Positions 45,581-64,000 of a DNA stretch of 64,000 bases are shown here, one piece after another; the stretch's first letter is position 1; every line of letters begins with the position of its first letter. Below the pieces are notes generated by a model, which saw only the letters and a program-made list of their open reading frames with translations, made no database searches and was not told the DNA's origin. The DNA lies in contig CAWCUY010000014.1 of assembly GCA_963798895.1 (NCBI GenBank), forward strand, positions 364,875-428,874, written 5' to 3'. The position numbers were made by a program, and so were the translations under genes. The DNA comes from an uncultured Trueperaceae bacterium (GTDB lineage Bacteria; Deinococcota; Deinococci; Deinococcales; Trueperaceae).

Positions 45581-46117
45581 ATGGAAGCGGAGCGGGTGCT
45601 CGAGGTGCTCGACGTACTGGGGCGCGCCGGCGTGCCGCTGTGGCTCGACGGCGGATGGTGCGTCGACGCGTTGTTGCAGCGTCAGACACGGGCGCACGAC
45701 GACCTCGACCTGGTGGTGCCGCGCGCGCGACTCGAGCGCCTCGGCAGCGCGCTCGCGGCGCTCGGGTACGTCGTGGCCGCGCCCCTTGCGCCGCGTGCCG
45801 ACGATCCGGGGGCCTTCGAGTACCTGGTGGACGCGGCGGGGCACCAGGTCGACGTTCATCCGGTGCGCTTCACGGCCGCGGGCGACGGCCTCCACCGGAT
45901 GGAGAACGGCGACGACTGGGTCTACCCGGCCCGGGGTTTCGCGGGCAGGGGCAGCGTGCTCGCCAGGCCCGTGCCGTGCCTCAGCGCAGAGGTTCTGCTG
46001 CACGGCCATACCACCGGGTACGCGCTCGACGCCGCCCACCGCGCCGACGTCGCGGCCCTGGCCGCCCACTTCGGCTTGCCGCTGCCGCCCTACCGTTCGG
46101 CGGACGACGCGTCTTGA
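45581..46117 (+). CDS. Nucleotidyltransferase of the ANT(2'')/Lnu-like family
   Basis: Motif LWLDGGWCVDALLQRQTRAHDDLDLVV matches the GGWGVDALLG-QTR-HxDIDLxV signature of aminoglycoside-2''/lincosamide nucleotidyltransferases. Confidence 0.7.
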   Translation: MEAERVLEVLDVLGRAGVPLWLDGGWCVDALLQRQTRAHDDLDLVVPRARLERLGSALAALGYVVAAPLAPRADDPGAFEYLVDAAGHQVDVHPVRFTAAGDGLHRMENGDDWVYPARGFAGRGSVLARPVPCLSAEVLLHGHTTGYALDAAHRADVAALAAHFGLPLPPYRSADDAS

Positions 46118-48494: not shown

Positions 48495-49655
48495 ATGCGA
48501 GCCGAGAGTGTCGAGACCGTCGTGATCGGCGGCGGGCAGGCCGGACTGGCGGTCGGATACCACCTGCAGCGCCGCCGCCGCCCGTTCGCCATCCTGGACG
48601 CGTACGAGCGGGTCGGCGATGCCTGGCGCAAGAGGTGGGACTCGCTGCGGCTGTTCACGCCCGGCCGCTACGACGGTCTACCGGGGATGCCGTTCCCCGG
48701 GCCGCCCTCCGTCTACCCGACGAAGGACGAGGTGGCCGACTACCTGGAGGCGTACGCCCGCGGGTTCGAGCTCCCCGTCCGGACCGGCGTCCGTGTCCAA
48801 CGCCTGACGAGGGTCGACGACGCGTTCGACGTCTCCTGGCCGGGAGGCTCGCTCGAGGCCGAGAACGTGGTCGTCGCGACCGGGCCCTACGACCGGCCGC
48901 GCGTCCCGCCCTACGCGGGTGCGCTCGACGACGCGATCGTCCAGCTCCACGCCAAGGAGTACCGCAACCCGACGCAGCTCCGCGAGGGCGGCGTGCTGGT
49001 GGTGGGCGCGGGCAACTCGGGCGCGGAGATCTCCCTCGAGGCCGCACGCCACCGCCACCGGACGTGGTTGTCCGGGCGCGACACCGGACAGGAGCCCACG
49101 CGGGCGGGAACCGCAGCGGATCGCCTGTTCACCCCCGTCATGTGGTTCCTGGCGACGCGCGTGCTCACCGTCAGGACGCCGCTCGGGAGGAGGGTGCGCG
49201 ATCACTTCCTCGAGCCCCCGCGGGGGATCCCCCTGGGCCGCATCCGGCGCGGCGACTTCGCAGCCGCCGGCGTCGAGCGCGTGCCGCGGGTGCGGGGCGT
49301 GAGGGGCGGCGCGCCCCAGTTGGAGGACGGGACCGTGCTCGACGTGGCGAACGTCGTGTGGTGCACGGGGTTCAGCGCGGACCACGCCTGGATCGACCTT
49401 CCCCTGGCGCGCCGTCACGGGCTTCCGGTGAACGACAGGGGCGTCGTGGCGGACTGCCCCGGCCTGTACTTCGTGGGTCTCCCGTTCCAGTACTCCCTGA
49501 GCTCGGTACTGCTGGGCGGCGTGGGGCGCGACGCCGAGCACCTCGTGGACCACCTCGTGGACCATCGCGTTGCCGCGCGCTCCGAGCCGGGCGCGGGGAC
49601 GGCAACGGACCCGGGTAGCGGGCCCGGGGGAGACCTAGCTGCCGTCGACGGGTAG
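48495..49655 (+). CDS. FAD/NAD(P)-binding flavin monooxygenase-like oxidoreductase
   Basis: Two dinucleotide-binding motifs (VVIGGGQAG and VVGAGNSGAEIS); the stop codon lies in the first bases of direct-repeat copy 1. Confidence 0.75.
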   Translation: MRAESVETVVIGGGQAGLAVGYHLQRRRRPFAILDAYERVGDAWRKRWDSLRLFTPGRYDGLPGMPFPGPPSVYPTKDEVADYLEAYARGFELPVRTGVRVQRLTRVDDAFDVSWPGGSLEAENVVVATGPYDRPRVPPYAGALDDAIVQLHAKEYRNPTQLREGGVLVVGAGNSGAEISLEAARHRHRTWLSGRDTGQEPTRAGTAADRLFTPVMWFLATRVLTVRTPLGRRVRDHFLEPPRGIPLGRIRRGDFAAAGVERVPRVRGVRGGAPQLEDGTVLDVANVVWCTGFSADHAWIDLPLARRHGLPVNDRGVVADCPGLYFVGLPFQYSLSSVLLGGVGRDAEHLVDHLVDHRVAARSEPGAGTATDPGSGPGGDLAAVDG

Positions 49656-49936
49656 AGCTGGAGGGTGTGGACGTCGACGCGCGAGCTGCCGGCGCTGGCG
49701 AGGTAGGCGCGGACGGCAACGAGGTCCTCACCGCGCAGCGGGCTTCTGAGGACGTGGTGCAGGTCGCGCTCGGGTGGCGAGCAGCACGGTATCCCAATCC
49801 ACGAGGTGGCGGCTGCCGTCGGCGGAGCTCAGGACGTTGCCGGGGGGGCTCCCCGTGCGTCACCACCCAGTGTGTGTCGTCGAGCGCCAGGGGGCGGGAG
49901 CGAGCGTCGTACGCGCGGAGGCGTCGCTCGAGGGCC
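49651..49936 (-). pseudogene. Direct-repeat copy 1: frameshifted fragment of the phosphotransferase (APH-family) gene
   Basis: 286 bp with about 95% identity to 58668-58957; it encodes ...RRLRAYDARSRPLALDDTHWVVTHGEP and then loses frame through two small indels; it is not a full gene. Confidence 0.8.
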
Positions 49937-49963
49937 TGCAACCGCGCGGCTCGCCCGGATCCG

Positions 49964-50797
49964 CTACCGCGGGGCGGCGCGCTCCTTGGCCTGGTGCGCT
50001 GCCGGGCCCGCCATCCGCCGAACGGCATCGATCGCGCTCAGGGCCGCCAGGAACGACGTGCGAGGGTTGTCGGGGTGCGGGTTCGAGAGTACCTCGACGC
50101 GGATCTCGGCCGCCTCGCCCAGAGCCACGATCTGGTGGCGCGTGCGCGTCGCCGACGGGTCCGACACGATGCGCACCGTGGTGCGGTCGGGGCCGACGCC
50201 CGCCAGGCTCAACGCCGCCGCCACGTTGACATTGGCGGGGAAGCCGCGGATCGCCTCGCGCGCCGTGCCCTCGAACACGGTGACGCTGCGGTCGGCGGGC
50301 AGCTCGATCGCGTTGTCCACCAGGTACGGCGCCCCGGCCAGGCCGCGCGGCGCCTTGGTGCTGGTGATCGACGCCTCCCGCAGCCCGCCCGTCGCCGCCA
50401 GCGCGCGCACCCCGTCCAGGCCGGCGATGCCGCCGCTCGGCAGCTCCACGCGGCCGCCCCGCCGCCGGCGCTCCTCGACCGCAGCCAGGAACGCGTCGTC
50501 CAGCAGCGCGCCGATGCTCATCAGGATCACGTCGATGCCCGCGTCGAGCAGCGGCAGCAGGTGGCTCCGCGCCGCCGGCACGCCGGCGGCCTCGAGCACC
50601 CAGTCGGGCTCGAGCTCCAGGATGCGCGACGGGTCGACGGCCGCGCTCCCGACGCGCGCGGCCACCGCCGCGGCGCGCTCCGAGTCCGCGCCGCGTCCGG
50701 CCACGCCCACCACGCGCACGCCCGGAAGGTGCCCGGCCGCCACCTCGGCGGCCACCTCGGCCCCGATGCCTCCGGCTCCCAGGATCGCCAGCTTCAT
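49964..50797 (-). CDS. Aspartate dehydrogenase-like NAD(P)-binding oxidoreductase (NadX/DUF108 family)
   Basis: MKLAILGAGGIG Rossmann N-terminus, 277 aa, AGGAGGAAGG ribosome-binding site. Confidence 0.65.
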   Translation of the reverse strand: MKLAILGAGGIGAEVAAEVAAGHLPGVRVVGVAGRGADSERAAAVAARVGSAAVDPSRILELEPDWVLEAAGVPAARSHLLPLLDAGIDVILMSIGALLDDAFLAAVEERRRRGGRVELPSGGIAGLDGVRALAATGGLREASITSTKAPRGLAGAPYLVDNAIELPADRSVTVFEGTAREAIRGFPANVNVAAALSLAGVGPDRTTVRIVSDPSATRTRHQIVALGEAAEIRVEVLSNPHPDNPRTSFLAALSAIDAVRRMAGPAAHQAKERAAPR

Positions 50798-50819
50798 ACC
50801 TTCCTCCTGACCATGTCGC

Positions 50820-51572
50820 CTACCTCCTGCCGCGCGTCCGTCGCGCCGCGCCCAGCCCGTGACTGATCCGGTCGGCGCATGCCCGCAGCGTCGGCACCAG
50901 GTCCCGCTGCCGCTCGGCCGTGATGAACTGCGTCGCGCCGCTCAGGCTCACCGCCGCGACCACCGCGTCGGCGGCGTCCACCACCGGGGCGGCCAGGCAA
51001 CGGATGCCGATCTCGTTCTCCTCCCGGTCGAAGGCGTACCCCTGCGCGCGAACGTCGTCCAGCTCCGCCAGGATCGCGTCGGGATCGGTGATCGAATAGT
51101 GTGTGCGCGGCTCGAGCCGCAGCAGCCGTCCGCGCGCCTCGCGGGGCGGCAGCGCCGCCAGCAGCACCTTCCCCATGGCGGTCGTCTGCGCCGGGGAGCG
51201 CAGCCCGACGTACGACGCCATCCGCAGGCCCCGCCCCCCGTCGACCTTCTCCAGGTACACCACGTGCGAGCCGTCCAGCTCGCCCAGGTGGACCGTCTCC
51301 GAGGTCTCCTCGGACAGCCGCATCATCGCGTCCCGCGCCACGTGCGGGAGCCTGAGCTCGCGCTTGACGCGCTCCCCCAGGTCCAGCAGCTTGTAGCCCA
51401 GCAGGTAGTCGTGGCCGTCGTGCCGCAGGTAGCCCCCTTCCAGCAGCGACTTCGCCAGCCTGTGCACGGTGCTCTTGGGCATGCTGCTGCGCTCCGCCAG
51501 GTCGTTCAGCGTGCGGGCACCGTCCGCCACCAGCTCCAGGATGGCGAGCGTCTTCTCGCTCGAACGGCTCAT
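50820..51572 (-). CDS. IclR-family transcriptional regulator
   Basis: N-terminal winged helix-turn-helix (TLNDLAERSSMPKSTVHRLAKSL) plus an IclR effector domain; divergent from the plus-strand catabolic operon. Confidence 0.85.
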   Translation of the reverse strand: MSRSSEKTLAILELVADGARTLNDLAERSSMPKSTVHRLAKSLLEGGYLRHDGHDYLLGYKLLDLGERVKRELRLPHVARDAMMRLSEETSETVHLGELDGSHVVYLEKVDGGRGLRMASYVGLRSPAQTTAMGKVLLAALPPREARGRLLRLEPRTHYSITDPDAILAELDDVRAQGYAFDREENEIGIRCLAAPVVDAADAVVAAVSLSGATQFITAERQRDLVPTLRACADRISHGLGAARRTRGRR

Positions 51573-51949
51573 CGTCCTCGCTCCCCGTCGCGTCGGATTC
51601 GCACGCGCGTCCTTCCCCCCCGTGGCCCGGCTCGTTCGCGTCGCTCGTGTCGACCGCGGCGTCGACGCAGGGTCGCCACCACCAACCGTTCCACATCTTG
51701 GAATCGTGTCCCGTATATTGACACGTTTTTCCGGCCGTGGCTATAGTGGCCCTACCGACAACCGATCATCGCATCCACCTGCGCCGGTTCGTGGCGCCCG
51801 TCGGTGCACCGACCCCAAGCCTCGGCACCCCGGCGGACGAACCGCGACCGGACGACGCCACGCGAACCCCAACGATCCCCGCTCCCACGCCCGCCGCGCC
51901 GTACCCCCCGCGCCCCCTGCGCGGACCGCCCCGCCCCCTGGGAGATCCC

Positions 51950-52999
51950 GTGAGCCACGCCACACCGACTCGCCCCCTCACGCGTCCGGACGTCCGCGCC
52001 CTGCTCGCCGCGCAGCCGCGCGTCAGCGTCGCCACCCTGCCCACCCCATTGCACGAGGCCGCGCGCCTGCGCGAGGAGCTCGGCGGCCCGCGCATCTTCC
52101 TCAAGCGCGAGGACATGACCGGCTACGCCTTCGGGGGCAACAAGACGCGCAACCTCGAGTTCCGCCTCGCGCACGCCGTGGCCGAGCGCGCCGACGTGCT
52201 GATCATGGCCCTCGAGATCACCTCGAACTCGGCGCGGCAGACGGTGGCGGCCGCCAACAAGCTGGGCATGCGAACGGTGCTGGTGCTGCGCGGCGAGAGG
52301 CCCGCCACCATCCAGGGCAACCTCCTCGTCAACTACCTGCTGGGCGCCGAGGTGAACTACGCCGCCGACGGTGACGAGCGCGAACGCATCATCGCCGAGG
52401 TCGCCGAGCGCGTACGCGCCTCGGGCCGCAAGCCGATGGTCCTCACCAGCGAGCCCATCTTCGACATCGGCTCGGCGCTCGCCTACCTCGAGTGCTCGGT
52501 CGAGCTGCTCGACCAGCTCGAGGCGCAGGGCGCCAGCCCCGACTTCCTGTACATGACCTCGGGCGGCAAGGGGCAGGCCGGCCTGGTGCTCGCCCAGAAG
52601 CTGCTCGACGCCCCCTACGCCGTCCACGGCGTGACCGTCAGCTACGAGTACGACGTCCCACCGCGCACCGCGCGTATTGCCACCGACGCCGCCCGCCACC
52701 TAGGCCTCGACCTTACGGTCGAGCCCTCCGACGTCGTCAACTTCGCCGACTTCGTCGGTCCCGGCTACGGTATCCCCACCGACGACGCCTACGCCGCCAT
52801 GGAGCTCATGGCGCGGACCGAGGGGGTGATCCTCGACCCGATCTACACCGGCAAGTGCTTCGCCCAGCTCGTCCACCACGTGCGGACGGGCGTCATCGCG
52901 GAGGACGCCACCGTCGTCTTCATCCACACCGGCGGCACGCCCGCCATCTTCTCCCACGCCGAGGCGATCCTCGCGCACCTCGACGCCGCCCGCCCGTAA
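51950..52999 (+). CDS. PLP-dependent ACC deaminase / D-cysteine desulfhydrase family enzyme
   Basis: Fold-type II PLP family (KREDMTGYAFGGNKTRNLEF...); start set at a GTG preceded by GGGAGA, discarding about 70 aa of Pro-rich upstream frame. Confidence 0.78.
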   Translation: MSHATPTRPLTRPDVRALLAAQPRVSVATLPTPLHEAARLREELGGPRIFLKREDMTGYAFGGNKTRNLEFRLAHAVAERADVLIMALEITSNSARQTVAAANKLGMRTVLVLRGERPATIQGNLLVNYLLGAEVNYAADGDERERIIAEVAERVRASGRKPMVLTSEPIFDIGSALAYLECSVELLDQLEAQGASPDFLYMTSGGKGQAGLVLAQKLLDAPYAVHGVTVSYEYDVPPRTARIATDAARHLGLDLTVEPSDVVNFADFVGPGYGIPTDDAYAAMELMARTEGVILDPIYTGKCFAQLVHHVRTGVIAEDATVVFIHTGGTPAIFSHAEAILAHLDAARP

Positions 53000-53025
53000 C
53001 GCCCCCACCCAAGGAGGAGGACCCC

Positions 53026-54639
53026 GTGACACGACCGCTCCACGCCGCCACCACCCTCGCCAGACGCCTGCTGCTCACGCTGCTGCTCATCGCCGGCGCG
53101 GCCACCGCGCTCGCCCAGGACGGAGGCAAGACCCTCACGTTCGCGCAAAGCGTGGCCGTGACCGACCTCGGGCCCGCCTACGGCGCGTTCCTCAACTACC
53201 CGGCAGGGTACGAGGTCGCCTTCGTGCTGTACGACCGCCTGGTCACCTTCGACCCCGAGCTGAACATCGTCCCGCAGCTCGCCACCTCGTGGGAGACCTC
53301 GGAGGACGGCCGCACCTGGACCTTCCACCTGCGTGAGGGCGTGACCTTCCACGACGGCACGCCGTTCAACGCCGACGCCGTCAAGTTCAACGTCGAGCGC
53401 ATGCTCGACCCCGAGCGCAACACCACCAACCGGCCCATCTGGAGCCCCATCTCGGGCGCGAACGTAGTCGACGACCTGACGGTCCAGATCACCACCACCG
53501 AGCCCTACGCCATGCTCCTGAACACCCTGGCGCACGGCTCGGGCGCGATGGTCAGCCCCACCGCGATCGAGAAGAACGGCGACGAGAGCATGACCACCAA
53601 CCCGGTGGGGGCGGGACCCTACATGCTCGAGTCGTTCAACCCCGGCCAGGAGGTCGTGCTCAAGGCCTACGACGGGTACTGGGGCGGCAAGCCGGCGCTC
53701 GACCGGATCGTATTCCAGTACGTGCCCGAGGCCTCGACCCGCGTCTCCGCCCTGCGCTCGGGCAAGGTCGACGTGATCGACTCCGTGTCGCCGCAGCTGG
53801 CGCAGTCGCTCGAGAGCGACCCCAACGTGACCGTCCTGTCCAAGCCCGGGCTGCGTCCCATGGGCTTCGCGATCATGATGAACCACCCGCCGCTGGACGA
53901 TCCGGCCGTGCGCCAGGCGCTCAACTACGCCACCCCGCGGGAGGCCATCGCAGACAAGATCTTCCGCGGCTACGCCCAGAACTCCGATTCCCCGCTGGCC
54001 TTCAACACCTTCGGCCACAAGAGCATCGGCGGCTACGAGTACGACCCCGAGAAGGCCAAGAGCATGCTGGCCGACGCCGGCTGGACCGACAGCAACGGCG
54101 ACGGCGTGCTCGACAAGGACGGCAAGGACCTGAAGCTGACGATGTACACGCCCGAGGGGCTGTTCCCCGCCGATGTCGACATCGCCGAGGTGACGGCCAA
54201 GTCGCTGCAGGACATCGGCATCGGCGTCGACATCGTCAAGATCGAGAAGGGCGGCTACTGGGACACGCTGCGCCTGCCGCGTGACGAGCTGAAGTGGGAC
54301 ATCGCCATGTTCGGCTTCAACCCGTCGAACGCTGGCGGCACCTACCACATGGACTCGCTCTTCAGCGCCAACCCCGACCCGGCCGCGACGCCGGTGGCGT
54401 GGAACATCACCCGCTACGACAACGCCGAGGTGACCGACCTCATCGACCAGGCCAAGGTCACGATCGACCCGACGAAGCGCGCCGACCTGCTGGGCCGCGC
54501 GCAGGAGATGGTGTGGAACGACGCGCCCTACATCTGGCTGCAGGTGAACGAGGTCGTCTCGGCCACGCGCAGCGACGTGTCGGGCGTCGAGGTGTGGCCC
54601 ATCATCTTCACGGTCGTGCGCAACGCCACCAAGCCGTAA
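53026..54639 (+). CDS. ABC transporter substrate-binding protein, family 5 (peptide/opine/nickel type)
   Basis: GTG start preceded by AAGGAGGAGG; signal peptide; SBP_bac_5 fold. Confidence 0.85.
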   Translation: MTRPLHAATTLARRLLLTLLLIAGAATALAQDGGKTLTFAQSVAVTDLGPAYGAFLNYPAGYEVAFVLYDRLVTFDPELNIVPQLATSWETSEDGRTWTFHLREGVTFHDGTPFNADAVKFNVERMLDPERNTTNRPIWSPISGANVVDDLTVQITTTEPYAMLLNTLAHGSGAMVSPTAIEKNGDESMTTNPVGAGPYMLESFNPGQEVVLKAYDGYWGGKPALDRIVFQYVPEASTRVSALRSGKVDVIDSVSPQLAQSLESDPNVTVLSKPGLRPMGFAIMMNHPPLDDPAVRQALNYATPREAIADKIFRGYAQNSDSPLAFNTFGHKSIGGYEYDPEKAKSMLADAGWTDSNGDGVLDKDGKDLKLTMYTPEGLFPADVDIAEVTAKSLQDIGIGVDIVKIEKGGYWDTLRLPRDELKWDIAMFGFNPSNAGGTYHMDSLFSANPDPAATPVAWNITRYDNAEVTDLIDQAKVTIDPTKRADLLGRAQEMVWNDAPYIWLQVNEVVSATRSDVSGVEVWPIIFTVVRNATKP

Positions 54640-54651
54640 CCTCTCGCCTTC

Positions 54652-54690
54652 ATGCTCCGGGCTCCCGCGCCACGCGGGAGCCCGGAGCAT
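54652..54690. promoter_or_regulatory. Perfect 18-bp-stem hairpin between the SBP and permease genes
   Basis: Sequence ATGCTCCGGGCTCCCGCG-CCA-CGCGGGAGCCCGGAGCAT. Confidence 0.6.
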
Positions 54691-54702
54691 GACGAAGGAC
54701 CC

Positions 54703-55623
54703 ATGCTGACCTACGCGCTCTGGCGCCTCGCCAGGATCCTCCCCGTGGCCCTCATCGTGGTCACGCTCATCTTCTTCCTGTTCCGCATGGTCCCCGGCGA
54801 TCCGGCGCGCGCCATCGCCGGGCCGCAGGCGTACGAGGACGCCATCGAGCAGATCCGCCACGAGCTCGGCCTGGACCGACCGCTGCTCGTGCAGTACGGC
54901 GAATACATCGCCGGTATCTTCCGCGGCGACCTCGGCTACTCCGGCATCTACCGCGGCAACACCGCCCCCGTCATCCTCCAGCACCTCCCGCCCACCCTGG
55001 CGCTGCTCGGCGCCGCCATGCTCCTCACCGTGCTGGTGGGGATCCCGTCTGGCGTGCTGGCGGCGGTCTTCCGCAACGGCCCCATCGACTACGCGATCAG
55101 CTTCTTCGTCGTGAGCATGCTCTCCGTCCCCAACTTCTGGCTCGGGATGATGCTCATCACGCTGTTCTCGGTCACGTACCGGGTGCTGCCGTCGTACGGT
55201 TTCGACAGCTGGACCGCCCTGGTGCTTCCCACCGTCGCGGTAAGCGCGAGGCTGGTCGCGGTGATCACGCGCATGATGCGTTCGAGCATGCTCGAGGTGC
55301 TGGGCCTCGACTACGTCCGCACCGCCCGCGCGAAGGGGCTGGCCGGGGGCGGCGTGGTCCTGAAGCACGCCATGCGCAACGCGCTCGTGCCCACCATCAC
55401 CACGCTGGGCTTGCAGGCGGGCTACCTGCTGGGCGGCTCCATCGTCATCGAGCGGCTGTTCGCCTGGCCCGGCGTCGGGCAGCTCATGATCAACTCGGTG
55501 GGCCTGCGCGACTTCAACATGGTGCAGGGCATCACCATCGTGTTCTCCGTCGGCTTCCTGCTCATCAACCTGCTCGTCGACCTCATCTACGCGTGGGCGA
55601 ACCCGCGCATCCAGTACGCATGA
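54703..55623 (+). CDS. ABC transporter permease (DppB/OppB-like)
   Basis: 6-TM BPD_transp_1 domain; GAAGGA ribosome-binding site. Confidence 0.85.
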   Translation: MLTYALWRLARILPVALIVVTLIFFLFRMVPGDPARAIAGPQAYEDAIEQIRHELGLDRPLLVQYGEYIAGIFRGDLGYSGIYRGNTAPVILQHLPPTLALLGAAMLLTVLVGIPSGVLAAVFRNGPIDYAISFFVVSMLSVPNFWLGMMLITLFSVTYRVLPSYGFDSWTALVLPTVAVSARLVAVITRMMRSSMLEVLGLDYVRTARAKGLAGGGVVLKHAMRNALVPTITTLGLQAGYLLGGSIVIERLFAWPGVGQLMINSVGLRDFNMVQGITIVFSVGFLLINLLVDLIYAWANPRIQYA

Positions 55624-56582
55624 CGCCCGACCCGAGCTTGCCCGGCGGCGGCTCCGCCGACCCCGCCGGGCCGGCCGGGGACGGTTCCGTGAACGCGGTC
55701 CCCCACGGCGCGGCGGCCGCCACCGTAGCGCCCGCCATCCGCGGCCCGCGGCCCCGCTGGCGACGCACGCTGCGACGCGCGCTGCGCAACCCCAACCTGA
55801 TGTTCGGGGCGGCGGTGCTGCTGCTCTACCTGGTGCTTGCGTTGCTCGGTCCCGCCCTCGCGCCCTACGGCGTCGACGACCAGGACCTGTTCAGCTCGCT
55901 CATCGGCCCCACCCGGGAGCACCTGCTGGGCACCGACTCGATCGGCCGCGACCTGCTCAGCCGCGTCATCGTGGGCACGCGCTACTCGCTCTCGATCGCG
56001 GTGCTGTCGGTGCTGTTCGGTTCGCTGCTGGGGATCCCGGTGGGGCTGCTGGCCGGCTTCTTCGGCGGCCGCACCGACTCGCTGCTGATGGGCTTCATCG
56101 ACATCCTCCTCACCATCCCGGTCATCGTGCTGGCCATCGCCATCGTCACGGTGATGGGACCCGGCATGGTCGGCCTCGTCACCGCCATCGCCATCAGCTT
56201 CGCGCCGCGCCTGGCGCGCCTGACACGCGGCAGGGTGTTCGAGGTGAAGGAGGAGGTGTTCGTCAGCGCCGCCACCGCCCTGGGCGGCAGCGTGATACGC
56301 ATCCTTGGCCGGCACGTGCTGCCGAACGCGTTCGCGCCGCTCATCATCGAGATCACCCTGCGCGCCGGCCAGGCGGTGCTGGTGGGCGCGGCCCTGGGCT
56401 TCCTCGGGCTGGGCGTGCAGCCCCCCACCCCCGAGTGGGGCACCATGCTCAGCCGCGGTCGCGAGTACCTCGAGATCGCGCCGCACGTGGTGGTGGCCCC
56501 CGGGCTCGCCATCTCGCTGCTGGTGCTCGGATTCAACCTGTTCGGCGACGGCCTGCGCGACGCGTGGGACCCGAGCCGCTGA
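55620..56582 (+). CDS. ABC transporter permease (DppC/OppC-like)
   Basis: ATG overlaps the upstream stop (ATGA); N-terminal extension followed by the permease core. Confidence 0.85.
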   Translation: MTPDPSLPGGGSADPAGPAGDGSVNAVPHGAAAATVAPAIRGPRPRWRRTLRRALRNPNLMFGAAVLLLYLVLALLGPALAPYGVDDQDLFSSLIGPTREHLLGTDSIGRDLLSRVIVGTRYSLSIAVLSVLFGSLLGIPVGLLAGFFGGRTDSLLMGFIDILLTIPVIVLAIAIVTVMGPGMVGLVTAIAISFAPRLARLTRGRVFEVKEEVFVSAATALGGSVIRILGRHVLPNAFAPLIIEITLRAGQAVLVGAALGFLGLGVQPPTPEWGTMLSRGREYLEIAPHVVVAPGLAISLLVLGFNLFGDGLRDAWDPSR

Positions 56583-56618
56583 CGCGCCCGGACGTCCCGG
56601 GGCCTGGAGGGCCACCCC

Positions 56619-57767
56619 ATGATCCACGTCTCCCGCTTCGAGCGCCCCTTCCGCGTGATCGACGCCCACGCGCACGTGCTGCCCTACTTCGGCAGCGCCG
56701 CCGGCTTCGCCTCGCCGGAGGAGCACCACCTCTACATGCAGCGCGCGATGCACACGCACGGCTCGCAACCGGTGCGGCGCGCGCGCGACCACGCGGTGGT
56801 GCGCGAGCCGACGCTGTGGGACCCCGACGACCCCACGCCGGGGGGCCGCTACGACGTCGACTTCCGGGTGGGCCGCAACGGCCGCTTCGAGTGGACGAAG
56901 GACGGCGAGGACTACTACCTGCAGTTCATGCCCGTCACGCTGCAGACGATGGAGGCGCCCGTCCAGTTCCATGTCGACCAGATGGACGCCGTCGGGGTGG
57001 ACGCGTCGGTGCTGCAGAACGACCACATCTACGGCAGCCTCAACGCGTTCTTCGCCGACGCCGTGGCGCAGCACCCGCAGCGCTTCCTCGGCTGCATCCA
57101 GGTGGAGGAGGCGCGCGCCTTCGAAGACGCGCAGATCGCGCGGCTGCGGCGCGGGGTGGAGGAGCAGGGCCTGCGCGGCCTGTACTTCACCACCAGCACG
57201 TTCTTCACGACCGGCTACCGGCCGTACTACGACGAGGCGGTCTTCGAGCCGTTCTGGCGCGAGGTCGAGGCGCTCGACCTGCCGGTCTTCTGGGTGTTCC
57301 CCACCTCGGGGCCGATCGGCGATTTCGCGGAGGAGATGCGCCGCTTCCGCGGTTGGTACGAGCGCCATCCCGCGCTGCGCTCCGTGCTCGTCCATGGGGT
57401 GCCCGACCCGCCCTTCCTGGACCCCGAAGGGCGATTGGCGCTGGCGCCGTGGATGGTGGAGCTGTTCGAGGCGTTCCCGCTGTACGCGGAGATCCTCTAC
57501 CCGCTGCGGTGGGGCGGCGTGTGGGACTACCCCTACCCCCAGGCGTTCGACCGGATCCGGATGTACCGCGACATGCTCGGGAGCGAGCGCCTGGTGTGGG
57601 GCTCGGACATGCCCAACGTGGAGCGCTACTGCAGCTATCGCCAGGCCCTCACCTACCTGACGGAGTACTGCGACTTCCTGTCCGAGGAGGAGCTGCGCCG
57701 CATCCTGTCGGAGAACGCGCTGTCGCTCTTCCGCGATCCGTTCCCGCGGGCGGGGGGCGCACCGTGA
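56619..57767 (+). CDS. Amidohydrolase-2 family (TIM-barrel metal-dependent hydrolase/decarboxylase)
   Basis: N-terminal IDAHAHV metal-binding motif; 382 aa. Confidence 0.72.
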   Translation: MIHVSRFERPFRVIDAHAHVLPYFGSAAGFASPEEHHLYMQRAMHTHGSQPVRRARDHAVVREPTLWDPDDPTPGGRYDVDFRVGRNGRFEWTKDGEDYYLQFMPVTLQTMEAPVQFHVDQMDAVGVDASVLQNDHIYGSLNAFFADAVAQHPQRFLGCIQVEEARAFEDAQIARLRRGVEEQGLRGLYFTTSTFFTTGYRPYYDEAVFEPFWREVEALDLPVFWVFPTSGPIGDFAEEMRRFRGWYERHPALRSVLVHGVPDPPFLDPEGRLALAPWMVELFEAFPLYAEILYPLRWGGVWDYPYPQAFDRIRMYRDMLGSERLVWGSDMPNVERYCSYRQALTYLTEYCDFLSEEELRRILSENALSLFRDPFPRAGGAP

Positions 57768-58228
57768 GTGCGCGCGAGCGCCTGGCGTCGATGGGGCTCA
57801 CGCTGCCACAACCCCCGAACCCGGTCGCGACGTACCTGCCCGTGGTCGTGGTCGACGGCCTGGCGTACGTCTCGGGCCAGGGCCCGACGCGCAACGGGGA
57901 GCCCGTGGTGCGCGGCAAGGTGGGGGCCGAGGTGAGCCTGGAGGAGGGCTACGAAGCCGCCAGGCTGTGCGCGCTGAACGCGCTGGCGGCGCTCGAGGAC
58001 GCGCTGGGCTCGCTGGAGCGCATCGAGCGCTTCGTGAAGCTGCTCGGGTTCGTGGCGAGCGCGCCCGGCTTCGGCGAGCAGCCGCGCGTGATCAACGGCG
58101 CGTCGGACCTGCTGGTCGAGATCTTCGGCGAGGCGGGCAGGCACGCGCGCAGCGCCTTGGGCACGAGCCAACTGCCCTTCGACATCCCCGTCGAGATCGA
58201 GCTCCTCGTGAGGGTACGCGGGCGTTGA
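57764..58228 (+). CDS. ridA: RidA/YjgF family reactive enamine/imine deaminase
   Basis: ATYLPVVVVDGLAYVSGQGP and C-terminal RSALGTSQLPFDIPVEIE signatures; GTG overlaps the upstream stop. Confidence 0.85.
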   Translation: MSARERLASMGLTLPQPPNPVATYLPVVVVDGLAYVSGQGPTRNGEPVVRGKVGAEVSLEEGYEAARLCALNALAALEDALGSLERIERFVKLLGFVASAPGFGEQPRVINGASDLLVEIFGEAGRHARSALGTSQLPFDIPVEIELLVRVRGR

Positions 58229-58389
58229 GCGTTCACCGCGGCGTCGGTCGCGTGTGGGTGCCGCTGGGCGCGCTCATCGGCCGCGTCCGCGGTCGGGCGT
58301 TCGCCGTGGCCGGCCGATAGGGAAGACGCGTACCGCCGACGCGCCGGCACGGCTTGCACGAGGTCACGAGAAAGATCCTCGTGAACATC

Positions 58390-58521
58390 CTGCCGTCGAC
58401 CCTGCCGTCGACCCTGCCGTCGAAGCTGGCGTCTATGCCGGCGTTCGCGCTGCCGTCGACGTTGCCGTCGACGCCCGCGTTGACGCCCGCGTTGACGCCC
58501 GAGTTGACGCTGGCGTTGCGG
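58390..58521. repeat. About eleven tandem copies of a 12-bp unit (CTGCCGTCGACC drifting to CCCGCGTTGACG)
   Basis: Direct reading of the sequence; the array lies between the ridA and APH gene ends. Confidence 0.7.
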
Positions 58522-58548
58522 GTGCCGGCGGGGTCTGCGGGCCCGGGG

Positions 58549-59574
58549 CTAGCCCGCGAGTCCGGAGCGGAGGGCGCCGAACGCGGTCCTGACGTCCGGC
58601 GTGCGTTCGTGCGGGGCCCGGATGTGGGTGATGGCGGTGGAAACGTCCGTGAGGGTCCATCGGTCGCGGTAGTGCTGGAGGGTGTGGACGTCGACGCGCG
58701 AGCTGCCGGCGCTGGCGAGGTAGGCGCGGACGGCAACGAGGTCCTCGCCGCGCAGTGGGCTTCTGAGGATGTGGTGCAGGTCGCGCTCGGGTGGGGCGAG
58801 TAGCACGGTATCCCAATCCACGAGGTGGCGGTTGCCGTCGGCGGAGCGCAGGACGTTGCCGGGGTGGGGCTCCCCGTGCGTCACGACCCAGCGTGTGTCG
58901 TCGAGCGCCAGGGGGCGGGAGCGAGCGTCGTACGCGCGGAGGCGTCGCTCGAGGGCCCCGCGGCGAGCGAGCAGCAGCGCGCGCGCCGGTTCCGCGAAGG
59001 GGCCGCTCGGCCAGGGATGGCCGAGGTCCGCCAGCGCCGCCTCGAGCGGCTCCCGCGCTTGGAGCGCGAAGTCCTCGCGCGCAGGGAGCGTCAGGCCGGC
59101 TCCCGCCAGCGCCGCCGTGGCCGCATGGAGCCGGCCGACCAGTTCGGCCAGGAGTCGCCGCTCCGATGCGTCGCGTGGGGCCCCGAAGGTGCCGGCCCTG
59201 CCGTCCACCCACGGCTGCAACGACACGGCGAAGCGCGGCCCGAGTCGACGCACGACGCTTCCGCCTGCGCCGCGCACGGGGGCCGTGACGAACGGCAACG
59301 CCGTCCCAACGGCGGGGTCGCGAAGCGCCACCGCGACGGCGAACGCCCGCTCGAGCGCCGCGAAGGCGCTGTCCGGATCCGGCGCCGCCTGGACCGGCGC
59401 GTCGAGATCGTGGACGGTGACGAAACGGGGCTGGCCGCGCTCGTCGAGGGCCCGCCAGTGGTGGCCCCCGAACCCGACGGGTAGGTAGTGCAGGTCGTGC
59501 ACCGCCAGGCCCCAGCCCGCCGCGAGCGCTGCGGCGAGGTCGGCGGGCGAGAGCTCCGGTGGCGGCGTGTTCAT
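58549..59574 (-). CDS. Phosphotransferase enzyme family protein (APH / aminoglycoside-kinase-like fold)
   Basis: 341 aa; the HGEPHPGNVL...VDWDT catalytic-loop region is typical of the APH/ChoK kinase family. Confidence 0.72.
   Translation of the reverse strand: MNTPPPELSPADLAAALAAGWGLAVHDLHYLPVGFGGHHWRALDERGQPRFVTVHDLDAPVQAAPDPDSAFAALERAFAVAVALRDPAVGTALPFVTAPVRGAGGSVVRRLGPRFAVSLQPWVDGRAGTFGAPRDASERRLLAELVGRLHAATAALAGAGLTLPAREDFALQAREPLEAALADLGHPWPSGPFAEPARALLLARRGALERRLRAYDARSRPLALDDTRWVVTHGEPHPGNVLRSADGNRHLVDWDTVLLAPPERDLHHILRSPLRGEDLVAVRAYLASAGSSRVDVHTLQHYRDRWTLTDVSTAITHIRAPHERTPDVRTAFGALRSGLAG
58668..58957. repeat. Direct-repeat copy 2, the intact copy lying inside the APH coding sequence
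   Basis: About 95% identical to 49651-49936. Confidence 0.85.
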
Positions 59575-59674
59575 GACGTGGTGTTCATGAAAGCGCTCCC
59601 GACGGCGTGTTCATCAGGGCGTGTTCATGACGTGGTTGCTCATGACAGTGCTCACGACGGCGTGCTCATGACGG
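59565..59674 (-). repeat. About seven reiterations of the APH start region (GYGYTCATGA on plus; ATGAACACGCC-like on minus), forming a chain of tiny uORFs
   Basis: Reading the minus strand gives ATGAGCACGCCGTCGTGA, ATGAGCAAC...TGA, ATGAACACGCCGTCG...TGA and ATGAACACCACGTCATGA, and then the real ATGAACACGCCGCCACCG of the APH gene. Confidence 0.55.
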
Positions 59675-60206
59675 CGCGCTCCCACCGTGGATCACGGGTC
59701 GTCCGCGACCTCGCGCCTGGGCCCGTCGGCCCGCCTTGCACCACCGCCGCCGCCCCACGACGGCCTCGGGATCTCGCACGCGAGCCGGCCTTGTGCATGA
59801 GCGCACGAGGAAAAACATTGTGCGCTCGTGCAGAGCGCTCGTGAGCGGCGCCGTCCGCAACCGGGCGAGCGCCGGTCCGGGCCCGGCGCCGGCACAGGTC
59901 GGGCGCCGGCGCGGGCTGGTGGTCGGTGCGGGCCGGGCGCCGGCGCGAGGGGCGGTTCGCGCCTCGAGGCGACGCCGCCATCGGTCGGTCCGGCCCACGC
60001 TGCCGGGCGCGAACCTCGCACGGGCCCGCACGTGCGAGGTTCGCGCGACCGGGCACCCGCCCGCGAGAGGTGCCCGCACGGGGCGGGCCCGGCCCGGCGC
60101 GCTCGCCACGGAGTGCGCTCGCGGCGCCGCCCGGGATCGGAGGGCGCGAGCGGGCATGCGCGGCAATCCATGCCGGATCCCGACGGGCTCTCGAGGGTGA
60201 AAAACC

Positions 60207-60224
60207 TGATAACTCGTCTTATCA
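60207..60224 (+). promoter_or_regulatory. Palindromic operator-like site TGATAA-N6-TTATCA in a locally AT-rich stretch just upstream of the integrase gene
   Basis: Sequence TGATAACTCGTCTTATCA, followed by GATATGCT, lies 22 nt before the ATG. Confidence 0.4.
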
Positions 60225-60245
60225 GAGATATGCTACCGTGCCTTC

Positions 60246-61250
60246 ATGGCCGCCACCGAACGCTTCCGGATCGAACGCTTCCAGGGCGACGCGCTCGCCC
60301 GCGCGGAGTCCTGGGCGACCCTCGCGCCCGACGACCTGAAGCGCCGCGCGGCCCGCGCCGCCAACGCGCGCGACGGCGATGACCTCTGGGCGCTCACCGA
60401 AGCGTACCTCTTCCTGCACGGCTCCAAGGGCGCCCGCGTCAGCAAGCACACGCTGCGCACCTACAAGCGCGGCCTCGAGGACCTGCTCGCCGCGTGGCCG
60501 CACGAGAACCTGTTGAGGCCCGGGCGGGATGCCGGGGTGCTGTACATCCGGCGACTCGAGGCGACGCCGGTGCCCGGGAGCGACGCCCCGCCGCAGGCCG
60601 CCACGCTGCAGGTCAAGCTGGCCGCCGCCCGCACGCTGTACCGGGCGCTGCGCTGGTCCGGCGCCACCGAGGCGCGTCCGTTCGAGAACGTGCGCGTCGC
60701 CAAGGACCCCACGCCGCCGTGGGAGAAACGCCGCCCGTACGGCGAGCGCGAGATCGAGGCGCTGCTCGAGCTGGGCGACGAGGCCGAGCGCGTCATCGCG
60801 CTGCTCGGCGCCCACGCCGGCCTTCGGATCGGCGAGATGGCCGCCCTGGAGTGGTCCGACGTCGACCTGCCGTCTGGGCGCCTGCACGTGCGCGACGGCA
60901 AGGGCGGCAAGAGCGGTTTCGTGCGGATGACGCGCCGCTTGCGCGACGCGTTGCGGGACCTGCGGGCCGCAGGGGCCGCCCCGCACCGTCAGCGCGACGC
61001 GGCGCTGGTGCTCCCATGGGGGGCGGACCACTGCCGCAAACGGTTCCGCGACCTGTGCAGCAGAGCCGGCGTCGACTACGACTCCGCGGGCGTCCACGGC
61101 CTCCGGCACGGCGCGGGCACGCGCTACTACCGTCAGACGCACGACCTCGGCCGCGTCGCAGCGCACCTGCGGCACGCCGACATCCAGACCACGCGCATCT
61201 ACGCAAAGATCGACGAAGCGGCCGTCGGCGAGGACATCGAGGACTGGTAG
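60246..61250 (+). CDS. Tyrosine-type site-specific recombinase / integrase
   Basis: N-terminal SAM-like domain (SKHTLRTYKRGLEDLL); catalytic R (GLRIGEMAALEW), HxxR (HGLRHGAGT) and Y (TTRIYAKI) motifs. Confidence 0.85.
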   Translation: MAATERFRIERFQGDALARAESWATLAPDDLKRRAARAANARDGDDLWALTEAYLFLHGSKGARVSKHTLRTYKRGLEDLLAAWPHENLLRPGRDAGVLYIRRLEATPVPGSDAPPQAATLQVKLAAARTLYRALRWSGATEARPFENVRVAKDPTPPWEKRRPYGEREIEALLELGDEAERVIALLGAHAGLRIGEMAALEWSDVDLPSGRLHVRDGKGGKSGFVRMTRRLRDALRDLRAAGAAPHRQRDAALVLPWGADHCRKRFRDLCSRAGVDYDSAGVHGLRHGAGTRYYRQTHDLGRVAAHLRHADIQTTRIYAKIDEAAVGEDIEDW

Positions 61251-61346
61251 CGGGCCGGCGGCTCCGGGCGCGCCGGTCGCGCCTCCGGCCCCGCGCGCAG
61301 GCGCCTCCGGCCCTGCACGCCCGTCTCGCGCGCCCGGGGCGCCCGG

Positions 61347-61490
61347 CCCTCGCGCCCTGCAAGCCCGTTCCTCGCGCCCTGCAAGCCCGTTCCTCGCGCC
61401 CCGCAAGCCCGTCCCTCGCGCCTTGCGCGCCCGTCCCTGGCGCCCTGTGCGCCGGCCCCTCGGCCGCTGCGCGCCGGCGCCTCGCGCTCT
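61347..61490. repeat. About six degenerating tandem copies of a 22-bp unit (CCTCGCGCCCTGCAAGCCCGTT)
   Basis: Direct reading of the sequence. Confidence 0.65.
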
Positions 61491-61528
61491 TCCCCGCCCC
61501 CGCCGCCGTCGGTGGCGAGCCTCGCGTC

Positions 61529-61596
61529 TCGTCGCGGCGCCCGCGCGCCGTCGTCGCGGCGCCCGCGCGCACGTCGTCGCGGCGCCCGCGCGCGTT
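61529..61596. repeat. Three tandem copies of a 22-bp unit (TCGTCGCGGCGCCCGCGCGCNN)
   Basis: Direct reading of the sequence. Confidence 0.7.
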
Positions 61597-61641
61597 CCAG
61601 GCGCCCAGGCCGGGCGCGCGCATCACGTAGCATGAGCGCTG

Positions 61642-63435
61642 ATGCTCGCAGCGCGCCGCCGTCTCTCCCGTCGCCATCTCCGCAGGTACCGCGAGATCGT
61701 GCAGGCGTTCATGCGCCACGGGTTCGGCGCCGTGGTGGGGCGCTTCGGCATCGCCGCGCGCCTGGGCCTGCGCGAGCCGCTGGAGCAGGCGACCGACCAG
61801 CGTGCGGCGGCCGAGCACCTGCGCCTCGCGCTCGAGGAGCTCGGGCCGACCTTCGTGAAGATCGGCCAGCTCCTCTCGACGCGGCCCGACCTGCTGCCCA
61901 AGCCCTTCATCGACCAGCTCCAGCTGCTGCAGGACAGCGCGCCGCCGCTGCCATGGTCGGTCGCGAGATCGGTGTTGGAGACGGAGCTCGGCGAGAGCCT
62001 CGACGAGCTGTTCGCCGAGGTCGAGACGGAGCCGGTGGCGAGCGCGTCGCTCGGTCAGGTCCACCGTGCCTGGCTGCCCGCTCCCGCGCCCGCGGCGGGA
62101 GGCGCGACGCCGCCCGGCGGCGCCGCGGGCGCGCCCGCCGGCTCGGCGGCCGCGCCCTCCGGCGCGGGGGCCGCGCACGCCGGCGGCGCGTCGACCGTCC
62201 GGGGCGACGCGGTCGTCATCAAGATCCAGCGTCCCGGGGTCCCACGCATGGTGCGCGTCGACCTCGACATCGTCTTCGACATCGCCCGCTGGCTGGGCCA
62301 GAGGCCGGACGTGATCGGCTTCCTCGATCCCGTGGCGATCGCCGAGGAGTTCTCCGACGCGCTCACCGGGGAGCTGGACTACGAGCTCGAGGCGCGCAAC
62401 CTGCAGCGCTTCCGCCGCGCCTTCGCCGGCGACGCCGAGATCCACGTCCCGGAGGTGGTGTGGGGCCTCACCACCCCCCGGGTGCTGGTGATGGAGCGCA
62501 TCGAGGGGATCAAGGTCAACGAGGTCGAGCTGCTCGACGCGGCCGGCGCCGACCGCCACGCCGCGGCGATCGCGATCGCGCGCATGTACCTCAAGAGCAT
62601 CTTCGAACACCACGTGTTCCACGCCGACCCTCACCCGGGCAACCTGTGGGTGCTGCCCGGCGATCGGATCGGCATCCTCGACTTCGGGCGCGTCCACGTC
62701 GTGGCGCCGAAGGACGAGGAGCGCCTCACCGACCTCGTGGGCGAGGTCCTCACCGGCGACGCCGAGCGCGCCACCGACCGGCTGCTGGCGCTCGACATCG
62801 CGCCGGGAGGCGTGCACCGCGCGGGCCTCGAGCGCGACATCGGCCGCATCCTCGCGAACTACCTCGACCGCCCCCTCGGTCAGATCCACCTCGCGGATCT
62901 GCTCGACGAGATCCTACGCATCGCGCTGCGCCACCGCCTGCGGCTGCCGTCCTCGTGGGTGGTGCTGCTGCACGCCACGGTCATGCTCGAAGGCGTGCTG
63001 CTCCGGCTCGATCCCGGGCTCAACCTCTTCGCCGTCGCGCGCCCGTACTTCGTGCGCCTGAAGTTGAGGCGCGTCCTGCCGACGCAGTGGGGACCGGGGC
63101 TCGCGCGTAGCGCGCAGGACTGGCTCGCGCTCGCCGAGCGCTTCCCGCGCTACGCCGAGCGCCTGCTGCAGCAGGCCGAGCGGGGCGGCCTCAGCATCGA
63201 GTTCCGTTCCCCCGAGATCGATCGGGCGGCGCGCAGCCTCGATCGCGCCGCCAACCGCGTGGCGATCGGTGTGATGGCGTCGTCGCTCATCATGGCGATC
63301 GCGCTCATCCTCCCGCTGCTCGACTTCACACCGCCATGGTCGATCGCGACCTGGCTCGGCGTGGTCGGCTTCAGCGCGGCGACCGTCCTGGCCGTGTGGT
63401 TGCTCGTGACCATCCTGCGCTCGGGGCGGATCTAG
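61642..63435 (+). CDS. ubiB: UbiB/ABC1-family atypical protein kinase
   Basis: ABC1 motifs (ASLGQVHRA, VIKIQRPGV, HADPHPGN); a Gly/Ala/Pro-rich insertion of about 40 aa; C-terminal TM helices. Confidence 0.85.
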   Translation: MLAARRRLSRRHLRRYREIVQAFMRHGFGAVVGRFGIAARLGLREPLEQATDQRAAAEHLRLALEELGPTFVKIGQLLSTRPDLLPKPFIDQLQLLQDSAPPLPWSVARSVLETELGESLDELFAEVETEPVASASLGQVHRAWLPAPAPAAGGATPPGGAAGAPAGSAAAPSGAGAAHAGGASTVRGDAVVIKIQRPGVPRMVRVDLDIVFDIARWLGQRPDVIGFLDPVAIAEEFSDALTGELDYELEARNLQRFRRAFAGDAEIHVPEVVWGLTTPRVLVMERIEGIKVNEVELLDAAGADRHAAAIAIARMYLKSIFEHHVFHADPHPGNLWVLPGDRIGILDFGRVHVVAPKDEERLTDLVGEVLTGDAERATDRLLALDIAPGGVHRAGLERDIGRILANYLDRPLGQIHLADLLDEILRIALRHRLRLPSSWVVLLHATVMLEGVLLRLDPGLNLFAVARPYFVRLKLRRVLPTQWGPGLARSAQDWLALAERFPRYAERLLQQAERGGLSIEFRSPEIDRAARSLDRAANRVAIGVMASSLIMAIALILPLLDFTPPWSIATWLGVVGFSAATVLAVWLLVTILRSGRI

Positions 63436-63488
63436 CGCTCCGCCGCGCCGGCCGCGCCCGGGAAGGCAGGCTCCGGCGACGCGCACGC

Positions 63489-64000
63489 TCACGGCGCGCG
63501 CGTGCGCCCGTCGATGGCCCGCACCGTGCCGCTGCAGCAGCGCGCGGTGGCGCCGGCGCCGGCCAGCAGCAGGCAGCCGCCGTCGTCGATGCCCCGCGCC
63601 ACGCCCGCATGCGTGACGTCGCCCGCACGAACCTCGACGTGGCGGCCCGCGAGCGCGTCGAGGGCCGCGAACCTGGGCGGTAGCGCCTGGCCGTCGACGA
63701 GCAGGTCCAGGCCGCGCTGCACGCCCGCGAGCACCGCCCCGTGAACGGCCGCGACGTCCCACCCCCGAAGCCCGATGCCGCCCTCGGGCGGGCGGTTCGC
63801 GACGTTCACCCCCACGCCGACGAGGAGGTGCTCACCGACGACCTCCACCAGCACGCCGGCCAGCTTCCGCTCGCGGTACAGCAGGTCGTTCGGCCACTTC
63901 ACGCGCGCGCGCGCGCCGTACTCGCCCAGCACCTCGGCCACGCCGACGGCGACCGCCACGGCGGCGGTGCCGGCGGCGAGCCGGGCGCGGGCCGGGGATC
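63489..64000 (-). CDS. birA: Biotin--[acetyl-CoA-carboxylase] ligase BirA, partial (N-terminus lies beyond the window end)
   Basis: KWPNDLL signature and the C-terminal SH3-like domain are present. Confidence 0.7.
   Translation of the reverse strand, partial: SPARARLAAGTAAVAVAVGVAEVLGEYGARARVKWPNDLLYRERKLAGVLVEVVGEHLLVGVGVNVANRPPEGGIGLRGWDVAAVHGAVLAGVQRGLDLLVDGQALPPRFAALDALAGRHVEVRAGDVTHAGVARGIDDGGCLLLAGAGATARCCSGTVRAIDGRTRAP

Follow-up and report, generated by a model that had tools for sequence, protein, structure and literature searches.

Integration of e14 or of phage 21 into the icd gene of Escherichia coli leaves a displaced 3' fragment of the gene at the far end. In the amplifiable units of DNA (AUDs) of Streptomyces, direct repeats drive RecA-dependent tandem amplification or deletion. 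Repair scars of Streptomyces ambofaciens include 42- and 83-bp fragments captured from nearby DNA, with insertions ranging overall from 30 bp to 18.8 kb (PMC5869714); amplified units of 14.2 to 32.8 kb have been reported as well but were not shown to be flanked by repeats (PMC5869714). The locus compared here with these systems lies in a stretch of 64,000 nucleotides (the window, to which all positions refer) on contig CAWCUY010000014.1 of assembly GCA_963798895.1, from an uncultured Trueperaceae bacterium. Two direct repeats derived from an APH-family phosphotransferase gene bracket an 8.7-kb gene block, which an earlier note, made from the sequence alone, described as a catabolic module that the repeats could loop in or out. 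The arrangement is better explained, with a probability of roughly 0.7, as an old rearrangement that left a pseudogene scar, and not as a mobile module.

The repeat pair and its parent gene

The repeats, the intact gene, and the sequence abutting the fragment are as follows.

49651..49936, minus strand: copy 1, a 286-bp pseudogene fragment of an APH-family gene, equivalent to codons 206 to 302, with two 2-bp deletions
58668..58957, minus strand: copy 2, the stretch of the intact APH gene (codons 206 to 302) that encodes the HGEPHPGN catalytic loop and the DWD motif
58549..59574, minus strand: intact APH-family (APH(9)-like) phosphotransferase gene, 341 aa (Pfam PF01636, 51.2 bits, cutoff 23.2)
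49638..49650, unstranded: GCTGCCGTCGACG, 13 nt directly left of copy 1, with the same sequence as one unit of the 12-nt array that lies downstream of the APH gene

The two copies form the sole non-self match when the 64 kb are compared with themselves by blastn (E = 2e-129), and a repeat search of the window resolves them into three collinear segments with offsets of 9017, 9019, and 9021 bp. In the MAFFT and blastn alignments, they span 290 columns at 95.5% identity. These comparisons, of which the self-blastn had been proposed as a check in the earlier note, recover the repeat with the same boundaries. Its count of about 14 substitutions or indels comes near the 13 differing columns found, which comprise 9 substitutions (3.1% in 286 bp) and two 2-bp deletions, both in copy 1. 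The perfect runs are longest at the ends of the repeat (73 bp on the left and 65 bp on the right). When aligned by MAFFT with 150-bp flanks, the copies show one continuous match that is sharp at both edges, beyond which identity falls to background at once. A length of 286 bp, an identity of 95.5%, and the origin from a gene agree with the earlier view that this is not a target-site duplication.

The assignment of copy 2 to an intact 341-aa open reading frame (ORF) of the APH family is borne out by the PF01636 score listed above, and the HGEPHPGN loop and the DWD motif are invariant among APH homologues. The NCBIfam profile for APH(9)-Ib gives only 141 bits against a cutoff of 675, short of that curated family, and the predicted protein would thus be placed in the broad Pfam APH family only. 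Database searches find 1574 homologues at E values of 1e-20 or lower, the best of which outside this lineage have 52 to 55% protein identity. Because the nearest outside homologue is that distant at the protein level, the 95% DNA match indicates that copy 1 comes from the lineage's own gene, in agreement with the derivation from an APH gene proposed earlier. The last 38 codons of this gene and its stop codon (58549-58667) are not duplicated, and the repeat ends 116 bp before the gene end.

Copy 1 has lost its coding capacity. On the minus strand, its frame changes twice, so that three frames are needed to read it, and both gene ends are missing; the description of a frameshifted fragment therefore holds. 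The ORF over copy 1 has no Pfam match, and no gene is called over it on the contigs L012 to L014. It takes up nearly all of the 308-bp spacer between the convergent stop codons of a monooxygenase gene and an aspartate-dehydrogenase-like gene. The monooxygenase stop codon TAG (49653-49655) falls within the first five bases of copy 1, which had been said to begin at this codon; the association stands, with the codon inside the fragment. An Rfam search of copy 1 gives no match, RNA folding of its two strands is no better than that of shuffled sequences (z = +1.26 and +0.37), and no terminator or promoter signal is found at copy 1, nor any terminator-like site between the convergent genes. MAFFT and self-blastn comparisons detect no other trace of APH codons 1 to 205 or 304 to 341 near it. 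As in other gene remnants, its identity to the resident gene exceeds that to any outside homologue. The data on relaxed constraint are few: there are 5 nonsynonymous and 4 synonymous differences between the copies, and the part of copy 1 on contig L015 has 2 variants in 136 bp versus 2 in the other ~6.9 kb, at the end of that contig. Copy 1 is probably a dead remnant of an internal part of the APH-family gene in this genome, drifting without a function of its own.

The nonsynonymous differences, given from copy 2 to copy 1, are R228H, R243S, N248S, I269V, and H301L. Comparison with outgroup homologues indicates that the Ser at position 243 of copy 1 is derived. At positions 269 and 301, copy 1 has the residue of most outgroups (Val and Leu, respectively), a weak hint that the live APH gene has changed too. 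Position 269 is ambiguous, as the closest outgroup agrees with copy 2; for position 301, the underlying base is six bases away from the junction and may belong to the native monooxygenase sequence. At four of the nine substituted sites, the live gene has A and the fragment G. Since the coding regions are strongly GC rich at third positions, a change from G to A in the live gene is the easier reading of these four.

The block is covered by four independent assemblies, and all strains compared are at least 99.6% identical. The exact APH protein is also present on contigs of other samples. Contigs L012 (1.99 Mb) and L013 (101 kb), 99.6% and 99.8% identical to the window, respectively, contain both copies, base for base the same as those of the window. 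Contig L015 (9.5 kb) has the block as well, but of copy 1 only the right-hand 136 bp, which include the diagnostic 2-bp deletion and are joined to the dehydrogenase gene. One of its two variants in copy 1 is the copy 2 base, which carries little weight at a contig end. The arrangement is therefore the same in four of four assemblies, with copy 1 present in part in L015. By the earlier note, an old fixed arrangement would be indicated if all relatives had the two copies and the cargo in common; this is what is found, for strains of at least 99.6% identity only. The databases searched contain no deeper relative that has this locus.

Between the window and the strain represented by L012 and L014, there is about 1 single-nucleotide polymorphism (SNP) per kb in the left flank and about 0.6 per kb in the block, with none in the APH gene. 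This density is continuous over both edges of the repeat, which indicates a common recent history of the block, the left flank, and the APH gene. To the right of ~60.25 kb (60250-64000 versus L012), the density rises about 5- to 10-fold, to about 5.6 SNPs per kb; this discontinuity, the only one and not at an edge of the repeat, marks a boundary of recombination or history between the APH gene and the neighboring tyrosine recombinase gene. The same comparison with L012 shows a 22-bp indel at 61381-61402. The two copies differ by 3.1%, whereas strains differ by only ~0.06 to 0.1% in the same region; hence, the duplication long predates the split of the strains, and gene conversion between the copies is rare.

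More distant relatives share little of the locus. A scan of genome contigs with the APH protein finds relatives of at most 46% identity and no synteny. In homologue searches, the closest relatives are 52% identical for the APH protein, 74% for the monooxygenase, and 72% for the amidohydrolase. The best monooxygenase relatives share as context only a 99-aa ORF and the monooxygenase itself, and an exact look-up of the window's monooxygenase protein returns no record.

Origin of the fragment

The most plausible origin is an illegitimate, non-site-specific rearrangement that would have put an APH fragment about 9 kb away, in the spacer between convergent genes. One route would be a tandem duplication of a segment of about 9 kb that included the operon and the 3' part of the APH gene, which a later deletion collapsed to the 286-bp piece. 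In that case, the duplication junction would be at the right edge of copy 1 and the deletion junction at its left edge. Alternatively, a locally copied fragment may have been captured during the repair of a double-strand break in the spacer, a route for which the scars of Streptomyces ambofaciens, a high-GC actinobacterium, provide an experimental precedent (PMC5869714). By either route, the fragment would then have drifted, accumulating 3.1% substitutions and two -2 frameshifts, and a direct repeat spaced by 9 kb would be a by-product. The earlier suggestion of a partial gene duplication is supported.

The edges of copy 1 are sharp and lack extended homology, which suggests that the junctions are illegitimate. 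At the left edge, a suffix match as long as that of the 13-mer GCTGCCGTCGACG occurs at 5 of 51,600 other positions of the window. The 12-mer GCGGGCCCGGGG plus CTAGC, which span the APH stop codon, recur 20 to 30 bp left of copy 1. Local alignment beyond the left edge is at chance level (66 of 281 real-sequence controls score as high), a gapped global alignment proved over-fitted and carries no weight, and no microhomology is found at the right junction. The left-junction patches may be filler that was templated when an illegitimate junction formed, or what is left of a copy that was once longer. The 12-nt array that contains the 13-mer lies about 200 bp from copy 2. It is a tandem array of ~12 units (CTGCCGTCGACG / CGTTGACGCCCG) at 58378-58521, within the 320 bp that separate the RidA gene from the convergent APH gene, and no gene is called there.

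Several points weigh against a scar of this kind. Five nonsynonymous and four synonymous differences are too few to prove that copy 1 evolves neutrally. Both routes fit, and they are not distinguishable. The junction patches are not collinear with the parent locus and, apart from the 13-mer, are at chance level. The check for an empty site, with the block absent and a single APH copy, found no ancestral, fragment-free arrangement, so the order of events is not reconstructable. Finally, the collections searched contain no relatives between ~75% and 99% identity, and in them the lineage has none that is closer than ~70% in protein identity.

Recombination between APH paralogs, raised by the earlier note as another possible origin, finds no partner in the window, which has no second APH gene; copy 1, moreover, corresponds to an internal part of the gene and has neither of its ends. 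It is possible, if unlikely, that copy 1 is an eroded second APH gene, either a whole-gene duplicate or a sister-strain allele, from which two deletions removed 615 bp at the 5' end and 116 bp at the 3' end. Such a history would need at least three events, where the scar needs one or two, and would have left no other trace of codons 1 to 205 and 304 to 341 near copy 1. It would account for the orientation of copy 1, which is that of the parent gene, and for the outgroup-consensus residue at position 301 (less clearly at 269), as expected after an earlier split. The patch of GCGGGCCCGGGG plus CTAGC could then be a trace of the longer copy, but the flank matches are short, non-collinear, and overall at chance.

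A gene for a recombinase is found to the right of the APH gene.

60246..61250, plus strand: gene for a tyrosine recombinase of 334 aa, located outside the bracketed segment and oriented divergently from the APH gene

Its product matches PHROG 1 (integrase) and shares 42 to 47% identity with integrases of Deinococcus plasmids, and its XerC and XerD scores are far short of the cutoffs; judged by these matches, it is a recombinase of the mobile-element type. Its presence 1.3 kb from copy 2 would favor an excisable or insertable catabolic module, moved by homologous recombination or by a recombinase that uses the copies as attachment sites, as would the 286-bp direct repeats with their perfect runs of 73 and 65 bp and the self-contained, regulated operon found in unrelated genomes. 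Such a module is nevertheless improbable. The recombinase gene lies outside the bracket, and the junctions have no att-like link to its flanks; it was rejected as a driver, since the k-mers common to the junctions of copy 1 and those flanks are chance-level 11-mers only. The repeat is internal, 116 bp short of the gene end, unlike the products of integrases, which rebuild the 3' end of their target. There are no tRNA genes in the window. Of the features of an att-bounded element (an integrase inside, a repeat that forms the end of the target gene, presence/absence polymorphism, here among strains of at least 99.6% identity, or foreign composition), none is found. A foreign composition of the block was considered and rejected, as its GC content at third codon positions (0.89 to 0.97) matches that of the window, and neither composition nor strain divergence shifts at the repeat edges. 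All eight genes of the block encode metabolic, transport, or regulator domains, and no recombinase, transposase, replication, or transfer gene is found inside the bracket. Likewise, no transposase domain is encoded in the block or next to it, and there is no short exact terminal duplication, which leaves no sign of a transposon or insertion sequence.

The repeat, with its two long perfect runs, is long enough to support homologous recombination between the copies. The claim that the repeats can loop the whole module in or out is theoretical for any direct repeat; here, the block is present in all four assemblies, and the 3.1% divergence and both indels have been kept, which indicates that exchange between the copies is rare. 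Loop-out would truncate the APH gene, deleting codons 304 to 341 along with the block, and re-entry is possible only by homologous recombination of a circle without replication or transfer functions. A further barrier, in Actinobacteria, is NucS-dependent mismatch repair, which reduces recombination between sequences that are not identical (about 10-fold at 90% identity; PMC8228993). The L015 site in copy 1 with the copy 2 base could be a small conversion tract, but it sits at a contig end. No deletion or amplification allele is seen among the four assembled contigs. RecA-dependent deletion or tandem amplification via the 73- and 65-bp runs could in principle occur, as a latent property of the locus and not as an observed behavior.

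There is only a slim chance that the fragment is not inert, either because it yields an antisense RNA against the APH transcript or because the repeat is kept for reversible amplification of the operon under nutrient selection. A functional RNA at copy 1, in the form of a terminator or of a 3' untranslated region formed by monooxygenase read-through and antisense to 286 nt of the APH mRNA, is highly improbable. The plus strand of copy 1 is indeed antisense to the APH gene and begins at the monooxygenase stop, and read-through is plausible with no terminator-like site between the convergent genes. However, folding on either strand does not exceed that of shuffles, Rfam has no match, and the changes are drift-like, including the two variants within 136 bp in one strain, in sequences that come from one species only. 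An assembly artefact, in which a chimeric join or mis-polishing made a false second copy, might be suspected in metagenome-assembled contigs, all the more as the short L015 contig ends inside copy 1. It is ruled out by the identical copies in L012 and L013, together with the block and partial copy 1 in L015: the same 13 differing columns recur in the window and in two assemblies of different samples (the 1.99-Mb and 101-kb contigs), and the fourth assembly has the junction between copy 1 and the dehydrogenase gene.

Genes of the block and its surroundings

The left neighbor and the genes between the copies are as follows.

48495..49655, plus strand: flavin-dependent monooxygenase, 386 aa, left neighbor of the block
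49964..50797, minus strand: aspartate-dehydrogenase-like gene, 277 aa, first of the block, with its stop codon 27 bp from copy 1
50820..51572, minus strand: IclR-family regulator (Pfam), 250 aa, divergent from the operon
51950..52999, plus strand: pyridoxal phosphate (PLP)-dependent enzyme of the D-cysteine desulfhydrase/1-aminocyclopropane-1-carboxylate (ACC) deaminase/CuyA family, 349 aa
53026..56582, plus strand: parts of an ATP-binding cassette (ABC) importer, namely, a family-5 solute-binding protein (53026-54639), an OppB-like permease (54703-55623), and an OppC-like permease (55620-56582)
56619..58228, plus strand: last genes of the block, an Amidohydro_2 metal hydrolase (56619-57767) and a RidA/YjgF deaminase (57764-58228)

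The operon core, which consists of the genes for the IclR regulator, the PLP-dependent enzyme, the binding protein, the two permeases, the amidohydrolase, and RidA, recurs in unrelated metagenome contigs, where the amidohydrolases are 61 to 72% identical. "Catabolic module" is therefore a fair description. In these contigs, genes for a PfkB kinase and an aldolase are often found alongside, and an APH gene never is. Since the core recurs without it, the APH gene is a neighbor of the operon and not a member. No gene for the importer ATPase is found in the block or in the related clusters of three unrelated contigs (L018 to L020); the ATPases for this Opp/Dpp-type importer must therefore come from elsewhere.

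Two sites in the operon might affect its expression. A 43-bp near-perfect palindrome (54650-54692; 93% self-complementary) follows the gene for the solute-binding protein and precedes the start of the first permease at 54703. It probably forms an mRNA-stabilizing or attenuating hairpin; an Rfam search of the palindrome gives sub-threshold, microRNA-like matches only. In the divergent promoter spacer between the IclR and PLP-dependent enzyme genes, a 12-nt indel polymorphism at 51645-51660, with three alleles in four assemblies, could act as a modifier of operon regulation.

In the monooxygenase, the conserved core ends near residue 355, and the last ~12 codons and the stop are read from junction and copy 1 DNA. 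Truncation of this enzyme by the junction was considered and rejected, as the conserved core is complete and the tails of its homologues vary from 2 to 30 residues. An exact 12-nt tandem duplication (CACCTCGTGGAC x2.2) at 49539-49564 gives HLVD-HLVD at the end of the conserved core, a motif that homologues have only once.

On the other side of the block, an array of about six to nine copies of a ~14-nt unit (CGGCGTGYTCATGA; TCATGARCAC on the coding strand) occupies positions 59563-59690. It starts at the APH start codon and runs upstream into the 670-bp spacer that separates the APH gene from the divergent gene for the tyrosine recombinase; every unit repeats the start-codon context ATGAACAC. 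The array is identical in L012, and contig L013 stops just beyond it, at window position 59705. It could be an operator or an iteron-like array. In the same spacer, which is otherwise 75% GC, an AT-rich palindrome (CTGATAAC-TCGTC-TTATCAG) at 60207-60226, ~20 to 40 bp upstream of the recombinase start codon, is a candidate operator or recombinase-binding site. A second gene resembling those for aminoglycoside-modifying enzymes (Pfam Aminoglyc_resit, ANT(2'')-like; ~45581-46117, plus strand) is found within 14 kb of the APH gene. The comparison with a curated cutoff for a resistance family covers the APH(9)-like gene only, which falls far below it.

Comparison with known rearrangements

The segment resembles the integrations of e14 and phage 21 into icd in that it has the intact gene at one end and a partial copy at the other, the two versions are alike without being identical, and a gene for a tyrosine recombinase lies close by. 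In contrast to those systems, the recombinase gene lies outside the segment, the repeat is internal and stops short of the 3' end, and the segment has no phage or element genes, compositional signature, or presence/absence polymorphism. The 8.7-kb block between direct repeats with perfect runs of 65 to 73 bp is similar to AUDs. However, the four assemblies show no amplification or deletion allele, the repeats are short and differ by 4.5%, and exchange between them would truncate or partly duplicate the APH gene. Deletion or amplification alleles, should long reads reveal any, would make the locus a modest case of a catabolic operon whose copy number changes through repeats.

For annotation, this means that copy 1 should be labeled as an APH pseudogene remnant and not as an ORF, and that the repeats give no ground for labeling the block as a genomic island or a mobile module. 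Copy 1 also appears to preserve an earlier state of part of the APH gene. Beyond annotation, the locus carries little weight; it adds one minor natural case of an old rearrangement scar, from a high-GC soil lineage that has been poorly sampled.

Copy 1 resembles gene remnants that arise when a duplication is followed by deletion or when a fragment is captured at a repaired double-strand break, as in the nonhomologous end-joining scars of Streptomyces ambofaciens (PMC5869714). The fragment described here differs from the local captures in those scars (42 to 83 bp) in its length of 286 bp, which is within the overall range of insertions, and its formation would be an ancient event, reconstructed and not observed. 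As in those scars, a short internal piece of a resident gene from a few kilobases away lies between sharp, non-homologous junctions in a high-GC intergenic spacer, and the decay of copy 1 since its formation adds to its likeness to gene remnants and repair scars.

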